DNA of 64,000 nucleotides, taken from contig RSEE01000003.1 in NCBI GenBank assembly GCA_003971905.1, positions 744,001 through 808,000 of the forward strand, given 5' to 3'. The position numbers were made by a program, and so were the translations under genes. The notes under the pieces were generated by a model. It ran no database searches, was not told the DNA's origin, and was given only the letters and a program-made list of their open reading frames with translations. This DNA is from Moniliella sp. 'wahieum' (lineage: Eukaryota). Numbering within the stretch: the first letter of the stretch is position 1; each line of letters opens with the position of its first letter. Positions 1 to 62,094 of this stretch are shown here, one piece after another.

Positions 1-1099
1 CACGGCGACTTCAAAGGCAACTTGGCTTAGACTGCGATACTCACTTAGGGTTCTAGCTGTTTTACCAACTGCTCACACAACGGGAGGAGAGACTTGGCCG
101 TTTCCGATGCAAAGAGGAAAAGGTTCCTTGCCCATCTAGACTGCGACCGTGAAACGTGCATGTTGCCCAGCAGCATGCTGTTCAGAGAGCTTAGCCGATT
201 GGACACATTGTCTGCAAAACCATCAGCCCAGCCCACTAGCTGGAGACGGACCAGAGCTCGGCCACAGGCCTTGGCTCGAAGGGGATTGACGCTCTTCCCA
301 ATTTCCTCACCGTCCCTTGTTCCTGTGTCGTACCAGGATGTGGAACGACAAGAATTGCCGCTGCGTGAAGAGCAAGAAAACTTACTAATGGTATAGTCGT
401 CGTAGAGGCGCAACTTGGTTTGTCCAACTGAGTAAGAATGAAGGCGCGTGTCCTGTTGCCGGTGAACTTCAGCAGGTTGGACGCCAAGGGTATGACAGGG
501 TTATGTGCGAGAGCACCTTTAAGATTATTGCCCGAAGATGTCGTCTACAGTTCTGGCAGGGGATACTGTGTTGTGTTATGATCACAAGGCCCATCATTCG
601 TTTGTCTGACCATAACAGCATCTGACAACAAATTAGAATATTGGTGCGATGGGGGTATGTTTTCGGATGTGATTCCTGAGGAATGCTTCATGGAATGGTT
701 AGCAAACATATTGATACAAAACTTACTGCTTAAATGCAGTGGTTGAAGATGGTGGAGTGATTATGTCGAAATGCTTTGCTCGAAGAGCAACCAAATACAT
801 ATCTATCGTAGGGTCCTTAAATCCTCCAACGTTTGCGGCTTTCCTTGTCGAACTTTTTAGCTACAGACAAGAGATGTTGACCAACAAATATGCCGATTAC
901 TCCCATATGAGAACATTCTGCCCCAAAATCGGGTGATAGGTATCTGATCCAACCATTTTTGACGGTACAATAGAAATACCAATTGTCCAAGGTTCCAGAA
1001 ACACACTTCCTAGGTGCAGACACGCACTGGGCGAACGTCCTCTCCAGCGGTGTAGACGTGACGAATAACATACCGTAGATGAGAAAAATCGTTCCTATT

Positions 1100-2700
1100 G
1101 TATTCCCTGAGGCCAACGAAATGATGAGGATTCTTCTTCCAGGTTATATCCGTCAGTTGTCCGACTCAACAGTTAAACGCGAGTAAATCATAGCCAATCG
1201 GTTTGTTTCAGCTGTTCCATCAGATTATTGTCCTAATATCCCCTTTGGTTCAATCACGGTATTATGGTCCGGTCGTAGGTCAGGATCGATGCCTGAGGGA
1301 ACCATGTCTGGGGACGATAACGGTTCATGACCGTGGATGAGGAAGGATATCAAATCCTTTTCAATCCTGCAAATATGATCGCAAAACCAAAGATGTGACA
1401 ACTTACATTAACTCGAATCCTGGTGCCTACAATCCGGAATGAACGCGAAAATTCATTCGGCGATCCCAGTGCTCCAAGCACCCAAGAGATTAGTGTTACT
1501 TTGTTAACCGCAATTACCGGTTTTAGCGGGCCTCTACCTGATGAAGCACAATGTTTTGCCGGTTTTATGTAGTGCGGTTTCCTGTGGGACTTGATAGTAC
1601 CAAAAATAACAGAGGATATACTTATTGCATTCTCGAGCAATCACTGCTCTACCCTAGGCCTCATCAGGTCTAGTGTGTCATGGAATGTGTTACCGTGGTG
1701 CATTCCAAAGTGGCCTTTTTAAATTCACGACACAATATGACGCCTATTGTTGCTGGGATAAGTGGTACTGATTTAAGTTGCATACCGGACACCATCAATT
1801 AATATCGTCGATTGAAAAACAAGCAATCATCAAACGCATATTAGTAATACGTTCAGACGAACACAATGCTTGACTCAGAAAATGGGAAAAGTGGGCACAT
1901 GTCCGTCCAAGCTGAAAGTATTCCATTCAAGTAATGATCACTAGTCTAAGGTGCAATGTATTTTTGTTGTGTGGATGAATTGCGTGCTATACTGGTGACA
2001 TGCGACCAGTGGCACTGCAGCAGTAGTTTTCTTATCTTCTTGTTTTTACTCTTTGCGAATGGGAGCATTGCTCCTGTGGGAGCTATGCAGTGAATCTTAT
2101 GACTTTACCACCTCCATCCCCACTTAGCTGCACAATAATTTTCTGACCTTGGGTGAGGCCAGTGGTTTCTCCACTGATCCTTTCGAACCACCGCCGACCT
2201 TGCTATCGGTTCAATTACTGATGCGCCTATGTTAGGAATGTTATGTATATCAGAACGCACATCGCGATCTACGTCTTACCTGGCTAAGGGCTGGGGTTTA
2301 TCGCGATGTATCTTCCCATTGGCGCGCCTCCTTTTTGTCAACTCTAGGTCAAACATCAGGGAATTGGAGGGTTTACCTGAGTAAATCGAAATCGAGTCTC
2401 AAAGATTTGGCGTCAAGAGCTTGTATGCAGCGTAGAAGGACCTCATCCGGTTTCATCGGATCTATCTAAGGAAGGGACGGTAATAGATGCTTGTACGATC
2501 TACCCCGCATACAATGGATGCTTCAAACAGACCTGATGACGAGGAAGGGTGCTTTGATATTATTACTCAGGGAAACCTGATGCATCCGGGACGATTGTGG
2601 TACAGGCTGCATTAGACTTGCGATGGACTGATCATCCATGTAATAAACCTCTTTTGGCATGTATTTCTTTCGTTGTGTCCGTTTCCCTTTTAGGTATAAC
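1100..2700 (-). mobile_element. Highly degenerate Ty3/Gypsy-like pol relic (RT to integrase remnants)
   Basis: AT-richer, ORF-poor block. The minus strand gives YYMDD near 2630-2650, GHFG near 1705-1718 and 'HYIKPAKHC...GPLKPV' (ORF 1350-1640), in RT-then-integrase order. The motifs are short and could be chance. Confidence 0.35.
1968..2129. repeat. Dispersed repeat, copy 1 (about 150-160 bp)
   Basis: tgtgtggatgaattgcgtgctatactggt...atgcgacca.tggcactgcagcag...tatgactttaccacctccatc recurs at 21350-21496. Confidence 0.9.
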
Positions 2701-5700
2701 CCCCCATTCCTGATTGGTGCGGATCCTTTCCTACTTTTTATTCTCGTTCCTTCCCGCTGTCCTTATCCAATATCTGCGGTTTCCAAACACTTGATTCAGT
2801 TCAGCTAACCTCGAGTCGACTTGTGTGTTCCTCATCTTCAAACTCAACTTCCATCTTTCATCCTCCTCAGTCGAGGAGCCATCCTTCATCTGAGTCGAGT
2901 ACCCGTACCAATTTAAGGTGTGGATCCCGGCCTCATGGCCTGCCGTTCGTTCTCAATCTCAGCGTTGGTATTTGTTTTGCCCACCATCCCTCTGCCCGTC
3001 CCCAAGGCATAGATGTTATAGACACGTTATTATGGCCGACCTCGGCGTTTACGCAGCCTAGTTGTACCTGCAGATGCTTTTGTTTCACGCCCAAAACCTC
3101 TCCTCGCCCCTAGCTCCATTCTCATACAGCAACTAAACCAATCCCGAAGAAATTACCGTGAGTCGTCCCCATCAAGTAAGTAATTGTGCCTCGCACACCT
3201 GGGTGAAGCCTCTTACGGCACCATCCCTGAAAGGTTGTTTACTTTCACGATGATAGAGAGGGTTTTTTCGTGAACACCAACAATATTTGGCATTATCGAC
3301 GTACAATCGACGCAAAGTAAACGTCCATCCAATGGCTTTGGTCTCCCGCCCGAGTTTAAATTTCTACCCCTCACCGTTCAGCGTTCAGCCTGAACCCCCC
3401 TCCTCCGCTCCAATTTATCTCCACATCCTGAACCTCTCAAGCCCCTCGTGCTATTGCTTCTTCTGTGACGCAATCTAGGTCTATGGTACCCGTCAATATA
3501 TCATTAATCGCGAGTTTGACTGGGGCCCACTGGGTGTTTGAAGGAGAGTATAATCCAGCTGCGAAATTGGCGTGGTCAACATGCGATATGTGCGTACTTC
3601 AACCGGAGAGCTCTATCCATGGGTGCTGGGAGGTCAGGGACTGTGGGATGGTTGACAAGCAGAGGGGTGCGAATACTAGTTGGGATGCGAAAAAGTTTGT
3701 TATGGAATGGTAAGGATGTGGTGATACCACTATGGATCGTGTCGTGAAAACATAGAGGGTACGTTCGGAAGGAAGTAATTGGAAATTCTGTGAGAGCGGC
3801 AAGTAGCAAGGAAGTCGTCGGTGGGTATCATCAAGACAATATGAGGTCCACAGACTTGGTGCGATGAAGGAAGAGGCAGGGCTTGGACATGAGGTTGTGA
3901 AAGCAAAGACGATCGATCTCAGAGAATTAAATGATGCAGCCACTCACGAATTCAACCAGACCATTACGCTGTCCTTCAGTATCCAGCACTTCAACACCCT
4001 TCTCTTAGACTTCTTTCGGGACATGAGCGAAGCCCTCAATGTCAGCTGTGAACGGACTGGGGCAGTTCTGCTTCGGGAACTGTGGTTTAAGAATTGACGG
4101 CAGAGGCTCAACAAACCGCGAAGAGGCATTCGGCATCCGTCTTGGTACTTAGCACCCAAACCAGGGCAATGCAAGTGCTCCCTCCCGAAGGGGAGGACAC
4201 ACCACCTCCTTCATCTTCCGAGTACCAAAACGCGTCAGTTCAAGGCGAAGTCTGGGACAATGACATCACGGACCCCTTCAAATCCTCCGGGGCCAACGAG
4301 ATCTTGGACAGACTTGGGCGTCAAGGGAACACCATCGGTTGTCAGGAGAAGCGCGTCATCGTCTCGGGTGTGGTCGAGGGTAAGAGCAAAGGGGGAAGAG
4401 TGCGGTCCAATCGGGATCATGGAAGTATTGGGCATGGAACCGAACATGCTCATAAAAGTGTGGGCAAGTCGAGAGTGAAAAGGGAGATGGAAGGGAGGAA
4501 GAAACTGAGATGTTAAGAGCGAGGGGGATAAATGAGGGGGTCTTGGGGATTGCCGGGAACAGGATGGGAGAGATCAAGGGGAGGAGCGGTAGTCGAACGC
4601 TGAGGATGGGATTACGACGCACCATGGGAGTTGGTTGGGTGCAAATATTTCATCAGAAAGGGTTATCAGAAGTATGAGGGGGTACAAGAGTAGAGGTAGG
4701 TAGGAGGTCTGGTACAACGGGAAGATCAGTAAGGTTGGATGTGTTACGAGGCGCCCCGTTTGTCTCCCGGACGCAGAGCTCCGCATTTCATAGGCAAGGC
4801 ATGATCTCATTGAAACACATGTCGGTCCCGTTAACCTAGCGAGCGAGAGTCAGCGGAGAGGTTATCTATGTTGCGAATATCCTCCGCGGCCCGTCGTGGC
4901 AACATGAACCCTTTGTTCCCACCACACCGAATCTTGGCGGAACCCTTAGTTACCTGCTGCGGCCCATCACCAGATCTCGGTTTTCACAGAACGGGCCCTG
5001 CTTTCCCTTACTACTGGCCGTTGCCCTAGCCTTATCCTTTTTGGGAGGCACCAGGTCTGTGTGTACACGCAGCAACGTGAAGTGCTGCATGATGTTACCA
5101 TTTTTCGGACAAGGTGAGTAGTAGAGCAATCAGGGTGCGCTATAGCACGATCCGTAAGGATGGAGCCGACTTGGAAGTACTCGGCGACGATTGAAGGAAG
5201 GAGACAGGTTTCTTTGGCTGCGTCTTTAAACTTATCTGGCCGCTGGTTTTCCTGATTCCGGTCAAGGTACTTTCACTCTCAGCTGCAAGTCTACGCTGCG
5301 GAGCCATGCCTTGATCTCGCCATGGTCTTTGCTGCATATTGGGCCCCTGCCAGTACCCATTTGGGGCTGATAGGATGCACCTCTCCTGTCCAGCTAGCTT
5401 TCTGTCGCTCCCGAACAGATTATCGTATCGGGCCTGTCTCGCATAGAAATGGTGTGCAACGCAGAACAAAAATCGGGAGACGTGTGGTGTGTGTGGACGG
5501 TGTGATCGAACGGGATGTGCAGACAAATCTGGGGGCGGGAAACAACCTATAGATCAAAAGATGGATGGGTGGTCCACAGGGTAGCACAGCAGAGCGATCG
5601 CCTGGCGGGGGTTGTTAGTATTTCAGTGCTCAACCATAATGATCTGCATGATGATCATGGATCGAATCAGCCAAAGACGGGTGGGGTGGGCGGAACACCA

Positions 5701-6386
5701 ATGGTTATCGACCGTCGGTTATCTGCACGTGTATGGCCTGTAGTTAAATCATTAACGTTTAACCATCAAATCATCGAATGCCACACATTTCTCAAGGCCG
5801 GGCGGCGGAGCTCCATCGTCTCATCATCGATCGTCGATCAACGAGCATATGGACCGTACTGCATAGTACATCATGCATCATGGATCACCCTAGCTTTGCG
5901 CGCGCATGTGTGCACAGGCCAGCCCAGGGGTGGGGCGGGGCGGACAGGGCAGCCGACCCCTCAGCCACCAGCCAGGGTGGGGCTCTACGCGGTCTATTCA
6001 ACGTTAAACTTAACAGTTCGTTAATATGAAGGCTCATCGGCTATTAGAACGACCGTAGGTGTGCTTGGCACTTAAAACAACCTCATCCGCATTGCCACTC
6101 TTTCCTTCCCAGCCAGGCATCCGATCTCAAACCTCAAGAGTGGGATCCTGGAAGTTGGGTGCCGCTCGTTCATTGCTTCTTCCCCACAACCCCCACCATC
6201 TCGCCTTTTCGCCCGTTTTTTCGCTTGCGTGCGGGCTAGCGTGCCGACGAAGAGAAAAAGCTAATAGCGGTGTTTGTGTGTGTGTGTTCATCTCATTATG
6301 CCCAGCTCCAAAGCCCCTGGGCACTCTACGGGCCCAAATCCCCTTTGGTCTCGCCTAAAAAATTGATGCGGACCACTCCCTAACCC

Positions 6387-14056: not shown

Positions 14057-14316
14057 ATCCGAACGACAAACAAGAGTCATCCTAGTTATCCAACCCGTTT
14101 TTCCTGTCAACTCGACAAATGTAAGAAAAAAGGGAAGAGACAAGCTACAACACTTGCTTGGCTTTCTCTCGCTTTATCTTAATGTGATATACCCTCTCTC
14201 TCTCTCTCTTCCGTCGGGGCCAGCAGTGAGTAACAAGTTATGTTTTCGTTCGTCCTGGCCGATTACGCGCGCAAATGGTAGTTGGCTCCAGCAGACCGCA
14301 ACCGCGGGCTCTATAT

Positions 14317-14541
14317 TGCATCCATATATCATTGACAGAGCTTAAGGCAGGGACAGGGAAACGCTACGCATAAACCGCCCCATTCATCTTGCGTGTGTGC
14401 TGCTTGGTAGCACCAATCCCGCTAAGGAACCACAGGGGAATGGCCCGGAGATCAGGACCCTCTGGTGCGCGCCACTCGTTTCCATACCCCGAAGAGCGCG
14501 TGTGGACACGGATGCACGTGGTCGACATCCGAGCGAGGAAC
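14317..14541 (-). mobile_element. 5'-truncated 3' fragment of the CRE/Cnl1-like non-LTR family found at 58.7-60.7 kb
   Basis: Translates FLARMSTTCIRVHTRSSGYGNEWRAPEGPDLRAIPL versus FLARMSTTFLRVHTRFLGYGTGWREPEGPDILAIPL in the long copy. Shares the terminus tgcatccatat..cattgacagagcttaaggc. Confidence 0.92.
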
Positions 14542-15629
14542 GAACTTGAGTAGTGGTCTGATGGAAGGAAGCCGAGGAGCGAGAATTAACGATAAGGGAG
14601 CGGGGGTGGCAGTGCAAAGCGACTTGTCGCCACCCCACGACACAACCGTCACTACTTTTATATACGGGCAGTATATTGTCACTATACTACATCCATACAC
14701 ACAGTAGAGTTGCCGCTGCCTCGATATCGAAGTGGACTGCAACTCTGATTGAACTCTCCCTCTGCTCCCAGATTGGGTGTGGACGTGGGGGATCCCGACC
14801 ATCGGGTCCGAATCTCCTTCTCCAACTCACGTTTTACACTGTATATATAGTACCTACCTGCTCATCGTTCATCCTTCAACGATCAGATCAACTGAATCCT
14901 TCGGCCAACAAGCCGAGAAGAAAAGGGCTCATACAATCTTGCTCTTTGCTCCTTGGGGCCTCCTAAATGCTGAAGTCCTCGGGCTAATATGCAGCCGTTG
15001 TCGGGAAAATATGTTGAGGTAGAGTGGTAGGTACGGGTACGTATGTGGTTTGTGGTCGTGAGGGCGGTGAAGCGAACAATGCCCATTCGCACATCAAGCA
15101 TGGGTCCAAAAACCCTGCAAACTGAGACCATTAGCGTCATCGACCATCCGAGGTCTATGATACCCTACCACCCGCACCGACCCTTGTCCCATCCCCCAAA
15201 AGCCTCGGATGGTATCCGAGACATTGAAAACAGACCCCAGGTAAAGGGTGTACCCGTGTTTCGTATATATACATGGGCTCACAGAGGGAAAGGGAGGGAA
15301 CAGAAGGGAACGGAACAGAAAAGGAAGAAACGGGAAAGGAACAGAAGCGAGACCGAAGAAGGTACGCGCACACCGAAGGAGCCCCTATTTAATCCCCAGT
15401 GGGAGGAACAGAGAAAAGCAGGGTCGAATCGAATCGAATCATTGTTTTTATACTCTATCCCGGCAAGAATGACGAGAGAGAGACATAAAGGGGCCCACAG
15501 CTGCCGCACAACGCTTCCTACAAGAGAAAGAAAAAAGAAGAAAAACTCAAAGGAGTCAAGGACCAATTCCCAGTTCACTTTGGCAGTAGAGGAATACGAA
15601 GAAGAGGAGCAACACCAGATCCGGGTAGT

Positions 15630-50419: not shown

Positions 50420-50622
50420 TCTGAACCGCCATTTGTTTCTTCCTTGGCCGTATGCCTGCACAATGGACCACGCCGGCGCACCGGTTCCGTTTTTCTTTTA
50501 GTCGTTGGTGCTGCCGACAGCACTGTATCCTTGCCATAGCCCCTAACCACGAGCCCAGCTAGTTCCTCATGTAGCTCACGCCAAACTTAGGTTTCTTCTT
50601 TACTGGTCTTCCCTATCAACAA

Positions 50623-50702
50623 GGTTCCATATTGTAGTTGGTTAGCAAGTAGGATTCTGATTCATTGAATCTGAAACCTGGGTTCGAATCCCAGTGGGAC
50701 CT
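50623..50702 (+). tRNA. tRNA-Gln(CTG) with a probable short (about 8 nt) intron
   Basis: Acceptor GGTTCCA/TGGGACC, D-arm TTGT/GCAA, anticodon loop TT-CTG-A, T-arm CTGGG-TTCGAAT-CCCAG, followed by a T-run Pol III terminator. Confidence 0.9.
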
Positions 50703-51464
50703 TTTTTGGCCTTTTTACTCTTCAAATTATTTTGGCGAAGCCTATGAACGACACAACTGTGAGCACGATTGAGCTGAGCATCCAAGCGAAGGGCGGCAAG
50801 AAAATAGCGCAGAGGCTCTCGAAGTCGGAAACGATGTCATTGTTGGGTGTATTTTAAGAGCTCAACTGGGTTGCCAGAGTCGTCAACCCACAAAAGTTCC
50901 ACGGGCACATCATTGTCAGGCTCCTCACCAAAATTGGAGATGAAAGCCTGGTTCTCTTCTCAGTTGGCACAGTTCAGTAAGTGGACCGATACGGCGACGA
51001 TGGCCGAAGGGCATGTCGCTCACATGCGCCCCGGGAACGCAACCAATGGAACGCCAACCAATCTCGACGGATATGACGTGGTCGCACAGGGCAACTAAGG
51101 ACTGATGAGGAGCAAAAAAGGGAGCGCAACGTTGATGGTGGTGAATGCGTTGAAGGGCGCGCACAGGCGGCATTATCTCGATAATCCATAACGCAGGTTG
51201 TCTATGGGATTATCGTACTGGGGGTGGTTCGACGACGGATGTAAATTTCGGGCGACGAGCGTACGTTCCATGTTGGGAAGAGCGAGAGGGTCGATCCGGG
51301 CCGATGCCACCAGGAATCAATGTGTGATCAGCGACCAGTAAGCAGTGGCCATTATCGTGACGCGTGATGATGCACGGACGGACGCAACATTTCACCCTTC
51401 ACTAGGGTTGGCGGATGGCTCCATCCTGACGTCAGGAAAATCGGGCGAGAAGACAACCACCATC

Positions 51465-55681: not shown

Positions 55682-57992
55682 ATGGTCAAGGCTGTGGCTA
55701 CACTGCTCTGTGGCTAGTAGCCTAGCCAGCATCAGTGTCACTGATGCCAGCTCCCTCTACGCCCCTGCATGCTCATCTTGCTCGCCGCCAAGGCGGCCCT
55801 GCTGCCATTCCCGCAACTGGGTCCAGGAATCTCTCGCCCATCCCGACGATGCTGTCAAGTTTACTATTGCGCAAGGGAGAGAATTTCCATCAACTTGCCG
55901 ACAAGATGAACCAGATTTCCCATGAGGGAAGGGAAACTGCTCTCGGATGAGGAAATGACCAAGTACACTTCCCCATCGACGCAAGACAAGAAAGCGCTGG
56001 TCGCTTACCCAGAAGCACGGCATCAAGTCAGGACGTCACCTGGTCCAAGTACGGGACCACGCCACCGTCACTACCACTGCTGGCACCACCAGCAAGCTTT
56101 TAACCAACCTTCGCTCTACCGATTCAACAATACCGCCGTTAACCAGATGTCGATCAAGGCTCACTCTCTCAACATCCCCCCGCATCTGTCTAGCATTGTC
56201 GAGCACGTTCTAATCTGACCTCCTTCAAGCCCGCTCCGTCTACCCGTGGGGCCAAACTAACGCCCCTCTCCCCTGCTGCTGCACAGCGTCTCGCCCAAGG
56301 GGATGCGATCCGTCGGGCGTCACGGGCAAGTGTGCTTCGTTCCTTGTACGGGTAGACAAGTACACCCCTTCTGGTAAGGGGTCTACATTCCCCTCATGAT
56401 TCTTGGCTTCAGTAACGAATATGCTAGCAGCGTGAGTATTCTCTCTTAAATGATGAGTGTGGTGGAGATCATTTCCTCTATCTGTGGACCTACTCCTGTG
56501 GTTTTATACTGACATCTTCTTCATCAAACCAGTCCGATCTCAAGTCCTACCTTCAGCAGTTTGGTCCTTCCGGCTCAGAAAACACCCAAGTGAAGTTCAT
56601 GGGTGGCGGTGGCGGCCAGAACGACCCGAGCCAGCCGGGCACTGAAGCTTCGTTGGATGTGCAGGTTTCGGCTGTGATCAACTACCCGCTGACCAACACC
56701 TACCTTTACTACAACGAGAAGGATGGGATGTTTGACGAGCGTTGCAGTATGTCCTGGACAAGGGTCTGAAGCCGGGCGTGATCACCATCTCGTATGGCTA
56801 CTCCGAGTCCCAGGCAGGCCAGTCCCAAAACCAGCACACTTGCAAGCTGGTTCAACAACTTACGGCCCAGGGCACGACAGTGATCTCGGCTTCTGGCGAT
56901 TCGGGTGTGGAAGGAGTGCAGTACTCAGGCGAAAGTTGCTCCAATGGCTTTGATCCCACGGCGCCAGGTACCTGCCCTTACGTTCTTTCCGTGGGTGCGA
57001 CCAAGAACCCGAGCGTGGGCGCAGAAACGGCCGTCGCCTGGGGCGGTGGCGGCTTTTCCAATGAATTTTCCACCCCCGACTACCAAAAGTCGGCCGTCAA
57101 GACGTATCTCGGCAAGCTTGGGAGCAAAAACCAAGGAAAGTTCAAGCCCACCGGCCGCGCGTACCCTGATGTTGCTGCCATGGGCCAAAACTTGGTGCGT
57201 CTCATTTATTTTTGCTTCCCCCTTGACAGAAGCATAGAGGTGTGCTTTGAACGGTTTTTGTCTGACCCTCTCCTTCCTATCTTGTCAACTTTTCTCTAGG
57301 TGATCGTCTCAGGCGGCCAACAGAATACTGTACTCGGCACCTCGGCCAGCGCACCCATCTTTGCTTCTCTTCTTTCGCTAGCCAACGATGCTCGTCAAAA
57401 GAATGGGAAAGGACCCATCGGCTACGCTCACCCTACTCTCTACCAATCGGCCTCCTCCTTTACCGACATCACCTCGGGTCAAAACGCTGGGTGCAATGGG
57501 GACCCTACGCAGCAATCCCGCCGCAGCCTCCCTGCCCGCCAGTTTGGTAGCGGTAGTGGCAGTGGTGGAGGTGGAAGTGGCGGAGGTGGAAGCGAGCTTG
57601 GATTCCCTGCTACTCAGGGCTATGATGCGGTCACAGGGCTTGGTACCATCCAGGTGTCCAAGTTGGTCTCTATCTTGTCTGGTGCCTCGGGCTCCAATCC
57701 TGGCTCCGGATCGGGTGGCAACCCCTCTGGTGGAGGTTCAGGTTCGGGCGGTGGCAATGGTGGCGGTCAAGGTTCGCAGGGAGGTGGTCAAGGTTCGCAG
57801 GGAGGTGGTCAAGGTTCGCAGGGAGGTGGCCAAGGCTCCCAGGGAGGCGGCCAAGGCTCCCAGGGAGGTGGCCTGGGCTCAATGGGAGGCTTCGGGAGCT
57901 TCTTTGACAACTTTGACAAGAACTTTGACAATGGGGACGTGGGCGACTTCAGCAGTCTGTTTAAAGGCGCCCGAACAGTTAGCCTGGGTTAA
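55682..57992 (+). CDS. Secreted sedolisin / tripeptidyl-peptidase (S53) with a Gly-rich tail; introns about 56432-56532 and 57195-57299
   Basis: Hydrophobic N-terminus and prodomain; EASLDVQ, SYG, SGDSGV, GRAYPDVAA, GTSASAP, YDAVTGLG. Confidence 0.93.
57762..57870 (+). repeat. 21-bp coding tandem repeat x5 encoding GGQGSQG
   Basis: ggtggtcaaggttcgcaggga-type x3, then gg.ggccaaggctcccaggga x2. Confidence 0.95.
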
Positions 57993-58709
57993 GACGCTGA
58001 TGGGAAGACCTTTTCCATGCTCCATTGGCCCCCGGTTCTCCTTGAAAACCTCATTACAGGTCTCATAATACACGGCAATCTCTCTGAACCCCGTCGCCTA
58101 ACAACATACACTCCTACCCCGTTCTTTTATCTAAGAAACCCCTATGTTTCTCCTTTGTTGGTGGAAGGGCACTGCTGGCAGTTCCCCCTCCACCTTGCAG
58201 TTCTTCATCTCTACGCTGCATATGGCCTTCTAATATGCTGATGCCCCTGACCCACATCTCTTTTCAAGAATAGTTTACGGGGGCATCTTCTTTCTTTTTG
58301 TCCTTCAATTATGTCCTTGTCGACCTTTATGGGCCTCCAGCCTTATCGACCTCATCCTGTTGGTCATTGCCACATAGCGGTTACCTCAAATGATCAGAAA
58401 GAGACTGGCTCGGATGTGGGATTTGAATCCATCACCTTTTACTCCATCAGGTCTCCCTTGCACTGCGAGGGAGACGTACAGCCACCATATATATAAGAGT
58501 CACAGGGGTGCTTCTGAGCTGCAGGATTCTAACAATCGCATCCATCTCTTCTGCTAGCTCTGCTTGTGCTTATGCGCTTGTGTTAGTAGGAATCTGAATC
58601 TCGAAAATGTTACGGCCAGTCCGAATCCTACATTAGACTCATTTAATAGACTGTTCTGCATCCATATCATTGACAGAGCTTAAGGCTTGGACCAAGAGAA
58701 ACGCTCTAC

Positions 58710-60680
58710 TGCACGTCCATTTCATTGGCAGACTTAAGAAGGCTGGGACAGGGGGAACGCTACATCTAAACCTAACCGTTCATCTTGCGGGGGTTACTTA
58801 GGGGCGCCACCAGGGTCAAGGAACCAGGGGGATCGCCAGGATATCAGGACCCTCCGGCTCACGCCATCCGGTCCCGTACCCTAGGAAGCGCGTATGGACA
58901 CGGAGGAACGTGGTTGACATCCGAGCGAGGAACCATTTCCACTGAGACTTAGTAGCCAACTCCTTCCAATGCGCAAACAACTTGCTCGCCGTCTTGGTGC
59001 CGTAGTATCCTCGCGTCGTCAAAACCAGGGGGAAAAACGTCTCTTGAGTGCGTCCCTGGTACTTGGCGTTCTTCTCGCATTCTGCTTGTTCAAGCATCCG
59101 AAGCAGCTCCTTCTCCCGGCGTTCCAAGGGGGTTGCGGTGCTCGCATGCACCACCCTCCGGAACGCGCTCTGCGCTGCCAGTGATCCCGTGTCGCGCAGC
59201 GTGTGGTGGAACTCCATTCCTGATCCTCCGAGTGCTCCGGGTCCCATCACGCGGTAGTCAGTGCGCTGTGTCCTCTGTCTCCGGCCATCCTCGTCCTCCA
59301 CCATTGGTTCGTTGTGGACATGGGTGTCGGGAATGGAGCGTAGGAGAGCTGGAGAATGGGCTCCCGCACTGCGTCATGCAACGCTCCAAACTTGGCCTGG
59401 GAGCGAGTGCAATACATGATGTGCTCCAGCGAGGACATGACACCGCACTTGCACATGCTGCGCGTGGTGCGGCACAGCGAGCGGAGCTGGAGACCAACCT
59501 GGACCTGGTGGTCGGAGAGCCTGAGGTACGGGACGGACGGAATGGCGGAGAGCCAGTTGTGGCTCAGCGGGTTGCTGTGCTCAACCACGTGACGACCATC
59601 GGCAGCGTCCAGCTTCTGGAGCAGCTCCTGTCGACTTTTCTCCCACATCTCGCGGCAGCGCTGGCGTTGCTTCGTAAATGCGTTGGCCTCTGCTGTTTGC
59701 GGTCCCGAACGGTCAACATAAGTGGTAATAAGATAGTCGTTGACCTCGTTGGCCGCGGCACGGGCGTGGGGCGCGATATAAGAGTAGAGCGGGCTGCCGC
59801 ATCCTCCTAGCCGGAGAGGCAGGCTCATGAGCATGTCGAAGTGGTCGTCCTTGGCACCTTGGGGATCCTCGTCGCCCCGGATCCGTCGGAACTCCGTACA
59901 GATGAAGGCATCGATCTCGGCCAGCACTTCGTCTAGCTCTCCTTCCATCTGCATGGTGCGGAGCAGGTGGCGCAGCTTGGTCTGAGTGCTGAGCCGCCAT
60001 AGTAAGAGGCGTCCCTGGCGGGTGATGCCATCAAACTTAGGCATGTTCTCCCTCAGACTGGCCAGTTGGGCCCGGAGCCACGATCGACGACAGTCTACCC
60101 CTCCCACACACGTGCCCAGAACCTGCAGACCATCCTCCCGGATCTGGTCCCGGTCCCGCTCGACGCACTTGCGCAGGTTGAGCTTGAGGCCTGACGCGTC
60201 GTCTTCCAAAATCTCGGCAGCTTGGCCGGTAATGCCTGGCTCTGGACCGAAAATGGTAATGTCGTCCAGGTATGCCATCACCAGGTGCCCCGGCGGCAGA
60301 GCAATGCTCAACTTCTCTAGCGTGGGCCGCACTGCGATGGAGAAGAAAAAGGGGGCGAGGGGGTCGCCCTGCCGCACGCCCTCTGCCGACAGGACGCTGG
60401 TCTCATTTCCGCCCGACGCAACCCAAAGCTGGGTGGGGGAACCATAGATCCACCGGCCCAAGGTGAGGAGGTGGGGGGCGTAGGCATGGAGCGCCTTGGC
60501 GAGTGTGCGACGGCGCACAGTGTTGAACGCGTTGGTAAAGTCGAGCATGGCGACGTGGCTGAAGTCGCCCATTTCCGCATCGTTCTCCCCGCCTGGCGCT
60601 GTCATGCGCTCGACCATCCGCACGATAGGCTCCACCCCGTTTTGCGATGCTACTCCCAGCTGGGTGGGGAGAAGCCAGCT
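58710..60680 (-). mobile_element. 5'-truncated non-LTR retrotransposon, CRE/Cnl1/MoTeR-like (RT, CCHC and restriction-like endonuclease)
   Basis: QLGV...GVEPIV, LDFTNAFNTVRR, GVRQGDPLAPFFFS, AYLDDITI, LPLRLGGCG, CKCG....EHIMYC...HDAVR, RTD...EKNAKY...FFPLVLTTRG. Stop at 58816 and about 105 nt of 3' UTR. Confidence 0.92.
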
Positions 60681-62094
60681 AAAGCTCTACTGTATAAAGC
60701 GCTCCCATATCCTGTTTTACCTTATTGACTGTGGTCCACCGGCTCACAGTCGGTAGACCAGAGGTTCACCTCGCGGTTCCATCTGCTTCCACGCTGGAGG
60801 TACCGTGCTAGCGTGACGCTGTCTCCGTTCCCTGGTCCATTCTCCCATGATGCATGATGCATGAGTAGTAAAGGGCCCTCCTCTGCGTGTCTTGCCTTTT
60901 ACCAGTGTATATAGATGCTTCTTCTGTACCCAGATCCAAATTTGTGTCACACCTCAACGACCTCATCGACTTGTACTGCCCATCTGGCTCACTAGGCCAC
61001 ATATACAACGTGGAGGCAAGAGAGAGATGGGATGGGTGCAGGTCAAAAGTTAATTATATGCAAGATCAAGATCGAATCTGAGGTGAGCGCATCCCGGCTG
61101 TGGAGAGGGCACATAGGCCATTATCGATTTTCAAGGAGAAGGAGGAGAATGGATGACGTGATGCTTCTGCAGAGGCTATCTCAGAAGGGTACTAGGAGGG
61201 CCTCTCAGATTTCATACCGAAAAGTCGAGGGTACTGCGGAGCCGCGGGAGCGTCCGGGCCGACAAGAGAGGGGTGATGCCGGTGATGCCTATAACGCAGA
61301 ATGACATGATTGGGGGCATCCTCTACTATAGCTGGCGCCGAGAGCCCTGACATTGACGCCCCTGAGCCTGAAGCTAATCCAATCTTGATTACAACAGGGA
61401 AAGGAAAAGAAGGTAAGGAGCGATGTCGATGAGGCGGCCTGAGGCCTGAGGATGCGCACGATGGGGGATGTATTTTGGACAATATGTGATGTGACGGGAC
61501 GTACGTTACGCGTTACGCATACCCGTTTTCTTGGTTTTCTTGGCATGATTTGACAGACTATATAAGACCAACTTCAATTTCTCTTTCTCTTTCTCCGTCT
61601 CCCTCTCTCATGTGGTACACTGCAACGTACTATTATAGAGGAACGTCATGACATGGCCGCTGTGGATCAGTACGGCTGTGGCGGAAGAAACCTCGATCAG
61701 TTTTGAAACACAGTTGTGTGCCTCTATATATGCATTCTTTTGTACAACAAGCGGATATCCGGGCGGATCCACTGAGTACTGAGGTACTGAGGAGCAGCGC
61801 TGAGATTCAGGCACAACAGGATGGGATGGAGGAACGGATGTGCTGTTGGTTATGAGCTGACCCATTGCAGCTCCTCTGTCACATGTCACTAGTCCCTAAC
61901 ATGTGGCACGTCCTCGCAACGCCCTGTCCAAAGGCGACTGCCTCTGCCATGATGCATGATGTGGTCGACACGTGACACGTGACGCGTGATGCCGGTGACG
62001 TTCTCGGTGATATATCATGCATCATACACATCATGCAACCATGCATCATGCGACATAGCATGCACAGGATGCATGATGAATGATCGACAGGGAC

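Follow-up and report, generated by a model that had tools for sequence, protein, structure and literature searches.

The stretch of genomic DNA analysed here is a 64-kb window of Moniliella sp. 'wahieum' (contig RSEE01000003.1, positions 744,001 to 808,000; all positions below are window coordinates). Within it a dead, 5'-truncated non-LTR retrotransposon (one that lacks long terminal repeats) of about 1.97 kb, called copy B (1971 nucleotides (nt), 58710..60680, minus strand), is placed against the 3' end of an older relative, copy A. This arrangement is probably the result of an ordinary nested insertion, that is, of two successive events of target-primed reverse transcription, the second of which brought B into an older copy A of the same family. 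The anatomy of the locus, its target-site duplication (TSD), the type of protein encoded and the decay of that protein can be observed directly. Support for nesting comes from the TSD at both ends of B, from the presence of tails of two lineages, from the collinearity of the open reading frames (ORFs) with a full-length relative, from a match to the Pfam family RVT_1 and from an R2-like profile. An earlier note on this DNA had proposed a CRE/Cnl1-like element inserted into the 3' untranslated region (UTR) of its own family with a TSD-like repeat on both sides. What is supported is an element of the restriction-like endonuclease (RLE) type that lies in the same orientation in the 3' UTR remnant of an older relative and is flanked by a TSD.

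Read in the sense of the element, which is the minus strand of the window, the locus passes from unique DNA into a probable continuation of the copy A 3' UTR (A-up, 60693..60721, minus strand, about 29 nt, with weak homology and an uncertain 5' limit). This is followed by the upstream copy of the TSD, CAGTAGAGCTTT (60681..60692), which forms a direct repeat at the 5' end of B, then by the body of B, the word (CA)GTAGAGCGTTT, the rest of the 3'-terminal 53 nt of copy A (A-down, 58657..58709, minus strand), which sits downstream of B, and again unique DNA. The body of B starts abruptly within the reverse transcriptase (RT) coding region and its 3' end, which reads ...GACGTGCA, carries neither poly(A) nor a telomere repeat. 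The word (CA)GTAGAGCGTTT at 58699-58711 opens the second 53-nt tail, and A-down ends with ...GGATGCAG at 58657. The 3' UTR of B (58710..58818, minus strand) is 109 nt long including the TGA stop at 58816-58818. The coding part consists of two ORFs in different frames: ORF1 (59247..60686, minus strand, 479 amino acids (aa)) holds the RT, a linker, a CCHC knuckle and an LHD motif, and ORF2 (58816..59373, minus strand, 185 aa) holds the RLE part as recognised by alignment with 11 relatives. A BLAST and tblastn sweep of the 64 kb found pieces of the family at A, B and one other place only. This is copy C, an uninterrupted 3' fragment of about 230 nt (14317..14545, minus strand) comprising the last 36 codons and the 3' UTR, with unrelated flanks; its coding part matches ORF2 residues 148-183 at 75% (tblastn, E 6e-13). 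Some 100 bp separate the 3' end of copy C from a short (CT)n microsatellite at 14196-14211.

The TSD-like word aaa(c)gctctac(tg) to which the earlier note had drawn attention is present at 58699-58711 and at 60681-60692, with a difference of one indel between the two. In the sense direction the downstream copy reads CAGTAGAGCGTTT (58699..58711). The direct repeat abuts B exactly at both ends, and when the 32-nt stretches at the junctions were shuffled, only 2 of 3000 trials gave a local match as good. From the sequence the TSD would be 11-13 bp long; the last two bases of its downstream copy (tg, or CA in the sense direction) may be part of the terminus of B, and another way of counting the first bases of B makes the range 9-13 bp. 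A candidate TSD of copy A, ACAGTCAAT / ACAGTCTAT (9 nt with 1 mismatch), lacked significance, with 576 of 3000 shuffles scoring as well, and copy C has no recognisable TSD (2411 of 3000).

The doubled tail of about 53 nt, also described in that note, was confirmed, with A-down at 58657-58709 and the tail of B at 58710-58763 standing head to tail on the minus strand. The two are identical in 43 of 58 alignment columns. Comparison with the tail of copy C gave 46 identical columns of 55 for A-down and 45 of 57 for the tail of B. BLAST within the window aligned 58657-58705 with 14317-14365 (86.3% over 51) and 58719-58933 with 14326-14541 (74.5% over 220). By sequence comparison the tails of A-down, B and C are clearly homologous. 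As A-down is nearer to C than to the tail of B, the doubled tail derives from two source lineages, and a duplicated B end is ruled out. Template jumping occurs in R2-type reverse transcriptases, and this could favour a single composite event in which the RT switched templates during one round of target-primed reverse transcription, copying an A-type tail, then B, and then A again. Such an event needs two jumps and a return to the first RNA with a re-copied overlap of 11-13 nt, whereas a plain insertion with a TSD would give the same structure in one step. The single-event template switch was rejected as unparsimonious, and its probability is put at next to nothing.

The protein type of the element is indicated first by ORF1, which matches RVT_1 at 3.1e-13, above the curated Pfam cut-off, over the stretch 60159-60560. 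Its best match in the PDB is R2 (8gh6, 2.9e-6), and the best solved relatives are R2 proteins. The CCHC knuckle lies at 59409-59453 and is followed at 59373-59381 by LHD, which replaces RHD. ORF2 carries the motifs NEP, RTD, MEFHH (in which H replaces the catalytic D of the relatives) and EKNAKY. In the alignment the CCHC, RH, E, R-x-D, D and EK..KY motifs are common to B and the 11 relatives, an order that fits a CCHC knuckle with an RLE of the PD-(D/E)XK type after it, both C-terminal to the RT. Residues 1-427 of ORF1 align to residues 416-838 of P0001, a full-length relative of 1018 aa, and residues 11-139 of ORF2 to residues 859-993 (blastp, E 3e-14). Full-length relatives are about 1000-1100 aa long, and since B is collinear with residues 416-993 of P0001, some 415 N-terminal residues are gone from B. 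The consensus of the relatives has a C2H2-type N-terminus. RVT_1 was the sole Pfam family above cut-off in all six full-length relatives scanned, with no apurinic/apyrimidinic endonuclease, while B is represented without its N-terminal 415 or so residues. A profile built from 21 relatives matched R2 proteins at 3e-33 (R2Tg), with the CCHC-RLE stretch at 4.8e-5, and LINE-1 ORF2p at 1e-11. Judged from these predicted proteins the family qualifies as an RLE-bearing non-LTR retrotransposon of the R2 supergroup, and the parent of copy A was taken to be an RLE-bearing non-LTR retrotransposon with a single ORF.

The frame of B is broken because of two extra bases at 59344 (59344..59345), which split the coding region into ORF1 and ORF2; the frames of the two ORFs differ by 2. 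Public sequencing runs provide a comparison here. Two of the six runs listed (X1 and X2) hold part of the stretch, with shares of 0.36 and 0.26, and carry the family at 95-99% likeness but without this locus. The two bases at 59344 are absent from the covering contig of X1 and from that of X2. They represent either a real frameshift or an assembly error. If 59344-59345 were deleted, ORF1 and ORF2 would form a single frame of about 622 codons. With the frameshift, LHD instead of RHD and H at the position of the catalytic D, copy B is dead. The summed depth of X1 contigs is 19-109 over the 3' part of B (58755-59300) as against 3-10 over the RT part (59574-60665), with a depth of 60 in one bin (59483-59573) that short, unrelated X3 contigs also occupy. 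This pattern would fit many 5'-truncated copies, although contig depth is no copy number and the pattern is to be taken as a hint.

R2-type elements insert by target-primed reverse transcription. The order and chemistry of the steps suggested for this locus follow what is established for elements of that type. In the first step a very short, 5'-truncated copy A of about 85 nt would have been inserted between two genes. In the second, RNA from a diverged lineage of the same family, that of B, would have been inserted into A in the same orientation by target-primed reverse transcription. The RLE would have nicked the bottom strand just 5' (in the sense direction) of GTAGAGCG, 53 nt from the 3' end of A. 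Reverse transcription would then have started at the 3' end of the RNA (...TGCA, no poly(A)) and halted within the RT-coding region, leaving out about 415 codons and the 5' UTR. A top-strand cut 11-13 bp downstream would have produced the duplication. The decay of B, comprising the 2-nt frameshift, the change of R to L in RHD and that of D to H at the catalytic D, would have come later.

Several observations weigh against this nested insertion. A priori, a chance strike on an 85-nt relic of the element's own family would be a rare event, and this argues for some preference. The two copies of the TSD differ by one base. The homology of A-up is weak: when the 32 nt before the site in A were compared with the matching position in C, scores as good came from 74 of 5000 shuffles and from 253 of 18278 32-mers of the window, and no similarity was found to the corresponding place in B (4917 of 5000 shuffles as good). 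It had been claimed that removal of B rejoins copy A in the form seen in C; as regards the sequence beyond the 5' junction this is weakly supported. Copy A may therefore be no more than a stub of 53 nt at whose 5' edge B lies, the other view being that B splits a stub of about 85 nt. The bottom-strand nick would fall just 5' of GTAGAGCG under both views of the length of A. In the public runs, the X1 and X2 contigs cover only 58739-60665 (80-100% likeness) and include neither junction and no flanks.

Some of these observations could also be read as signs of an assembly artefact, in which wrong joining or duplication of the consensus, in a long-read assembly rich in errors, would have created the tandem tail and the repeat. 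The 1-base indel between the TSD copies, the 2 extra bases at 59344 in B relative to both public runs and the failure of X1 and X2 contigs to reach either junction all point in this direction. An artefact would, however, give near-identical copies, whereas the tails differ at about one quarter of their columns. Each tail moreover resembles copy C, which lies 44 kb off, as much as or more than it does the other tail, and a TSD exactly at both ends of a 5'-truncated element is the normal sign of a real insertion. An artefact of assembly is therefore considered very unlikely, and nested insertion is preferred.

The rarity of a chance strike raises the question of whether the family seeks out its own copies. 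The earlier note had suggested that it carries its own target about 50 nt from its 3' end. This was not supported, as only one of the three window copies is nested and the DNA around A and C is unrelated. Neither of their 3' flanks resembles the tail (779 to 2780 of 3000 shuffles as good), and the idea that either flank is a decayed tail was ruled out on the same shuffles. Unrelated flanks at the other copies were what that note had said would count against it. With A and C in unrelated DNA a strict self-target, obligatory in the manner of R2, is excluded. A loose liking for its own copies like that of Cnl1, or a shared permissive spot, is possible.

True self-targeting would mean that the endonuclease or the RNA prefers TTTATRC|GTAG(A)GCGTTT in the 3' UTR of the family itself, with tandem landings about 53 nt from the end. 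B is indeed co-oriented with A and lies within its 3' UTR, and the 3' flanks of B (GTAGAGCG, 58699-58711) and C (TATAGAGCC, 14305-14316) have in common the hexamer TAGAGC at most 3 nt from the junction. This sharing was noticed post hoc. Against self-targeting stand the fact that it concerns a single event, the location of two of the three window copies (A and C) in flanks without tail similarity, and the failure of a related idea, that the 3' UTR is itself a fossil nesting of two units of about 55 nt, which was ruled out when 1538 and 3363 of 5000 shuffles proved as good. Self-targeting of this kind is regarded as rather unlikely. Less likely again is the fully specified form of the proposal, a defined self-target at that sequence 53 nt before the 3' end with an 11-13-bp stagger and tail-in-tail stacking away from telomeres. 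If true, it would provide the first base-level self-insertion site for a Cnl1/MoTeR-like element. Self-nesting in general is not new, having already been published for Cnl1 (PMC9942834, PMC12810828). A separate coincidence is that the TSD of B and the candidate TSD of A both start with CAGT. The sharing of TAGAGC and CAGT was seen post hoc over three sites and no target motif can be claimed from it.

A further alternative is that the 53-nt block is part of a multicopy small-RNA gene or another host target carried along by the element. The precedent is that the RLE elements SLACS and CRE, which are named in PMC12857005, occupy spliced-leader genes. In both B and C, however, the block adjoins the end of the ORF and the 3' UTR without a break, and an X1 contig runs from the body of the element into the block (with a loose end at 58739). 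A search with the 19-nt core of the tail in a metagenome collection gave only six matches, all of them chance, with similarity ending at 19-20 nt. The Rfam search suggested with the original proposal found nothing at E up to 5 in either 58560-58900 or 14230-14480. The tails and 3' UTRs show no excess folding relative to shuffles (z +0.6 to +1.5, the latter for the B 3' UTR). The single Rfam match in the window at gathering score is a tRNA-Gln (anticodon CTG, 50622-50703, plus strand; Rfam match at 50623-50702), 8 kb away, which is also the sole ARAGORN match. Nothing thus places the copies at one fixed position within a multicopy RNA gene, with no Rfam family at or near them, no tRNA there, no structure signal and three different flanks, and a carried-along host target has hardly any probability left.

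The intergenic DNA containing A and B follows a gene on the plus strand (56736-57992), just upstream of the insertion site, which includes a subtilase-family stretch (Peptidase_S8, 6.2e-5) and, after it, a tail rich in Gly and Ser, where GGGQGSQ-type repeats occur at about 57.75-57.9 kb.

The earlier statement that no telomeric repeat flanks the interstitial copies was borne out, none of the three having one at its 3' end. No tandem TTAGGG or CCCTAA is present in the window, where the single hexamers number 3 and 10. Telomere-like words do occur in the 3' UTR of B (TTAGGG at 58798 and ctaaacctaacc at 58766-58777). Related contigs read other letters at 58773, 58800, 58802 and 58803; the words are private to B and are therefore put down to chance. 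A location in telomere-repeat or subtelomeric arrays was seen for none of the window copies and only for one relative, L007. This was one of five relative loci found in a search of genome_contigs, and the only one with useful flanks; a search of viral_contigs gave no relatives. The L007 protein is 34.6% identical to ORF1 over 445 aa and belongs to the same protein family. Its contig of 31.5 kb is filed under a cyanobacterial assembly and ends in about 22 TAACCC repeats. The element, which is single-copy in its own assembly, lies 1.4-1.9 kb from the (TAACCC)n contig end and has one open frame of 1248 codons. In the region 1-5760 it shows 5' tandem repeats (1450-1906), 3' UTR tandem repeats (5379-5687) and a degenerate CCCAAT-type tract (about 5720-5750). 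The contig looks like a eukaryotic chromosome end, and hence like contamination of the bacterial assembly, with a MoTeR-like telomeric element. The telomere-adjacent position of L007 is the one indirect pointer, by analogy, to a possible placement of the family in the CRE/Cnl1/MoTeR clade.

The locus neatly illustrates the nesting of one transposon in another, by a family without a close relative in the searched collections, where the best matches share 35-39% identity across most of the ORF. It also shows that a smut-related basidiomycete has an RLE-type element whose copies are interstitial and TSD-flanked. Among known systems, R2 (structures 8gh6, 9dou and 9nl3) is alike in the RT match and the profile described above, and it is from R2 that target-primed reverse transcription is proposed here. 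R2 has one fixed target in 28S ribosomal DNA, for which it is specific, whereas the copies described here occur in three contexts. The trypanosomatid elements SLACS, CRE1, CRE2 and CZAR of the CRE clade share the layout of RLE motifs (PMC12857005). They differ in that their target is a multicopy small-RNA gene, and no RNA gene is detectable at the copies in the window.

With MoTeR1/2 of Pyricularia oryzae and FoTeR of Fusarium oxysporum the family has in common the C-terminal layout CCHC ... RH(D/N) ... E ... R(x)D ... D/E (PMC12857005). The arrangement of L007, with 5' repeats, a 3' tract and a position near a telomere, is that of MoTeR and FoTeR. According to PMC7367193, internal MoTeR relics always have a telomere repeat, if only a partial one, at their 3' end, and according to PMC12857005 the 3' ends of FoTeR are followed by 3-7 TAACCC. 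The three window copies are unlike these elements in having no telomere repeat and ordinary flanks, and B has a TSD.

Cnl1 is a non-LTR element of the R2 superfamily from the basidiomycete Cryptococcus neoformans/deneoformans. It has a single ORF encoding an RT and is about 3.5 kb long (PMC9942834; bioRxiv 10.1101/2021.08.11.455996; PMC12810828). In the latter two sources its TSDs are given as 0-13 bp and its inserts as ranging from 25 bp to the full length of 3.5 kb, with many 5'-truncated (bioRxiv 10.1101/2021.08.11.455996; PMC12810828). Its insertions are placed in ordinary genes, in intergenic DNA and in older Cnl1 copies in tandem orientation (PMC9942834; bioRxiv 10.1101/2021.08.11.455996; PMC12810828), and its precise specificity is stated to be undefined in PMC12810828. 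When these published traits are compared with the present locus, the TSD of 11-13 bp, the fragments of about 85, 230 and 1971 nt and the co-oriented nesting are alike. Full-length Cnl1 is found in subtelomeric arrays flanked by telomere repeats, unlike the three copies here, which are interstitial and without a telomere repeat. The liking of Cnl1 for its own copies has been linked to the growth of subtelomeric arrays and to drug-resistance mutations in Cryptococcus. If the site in the present family were recurrent, a family with a mappable self-target would make the question of a Cnl1 target word testable.

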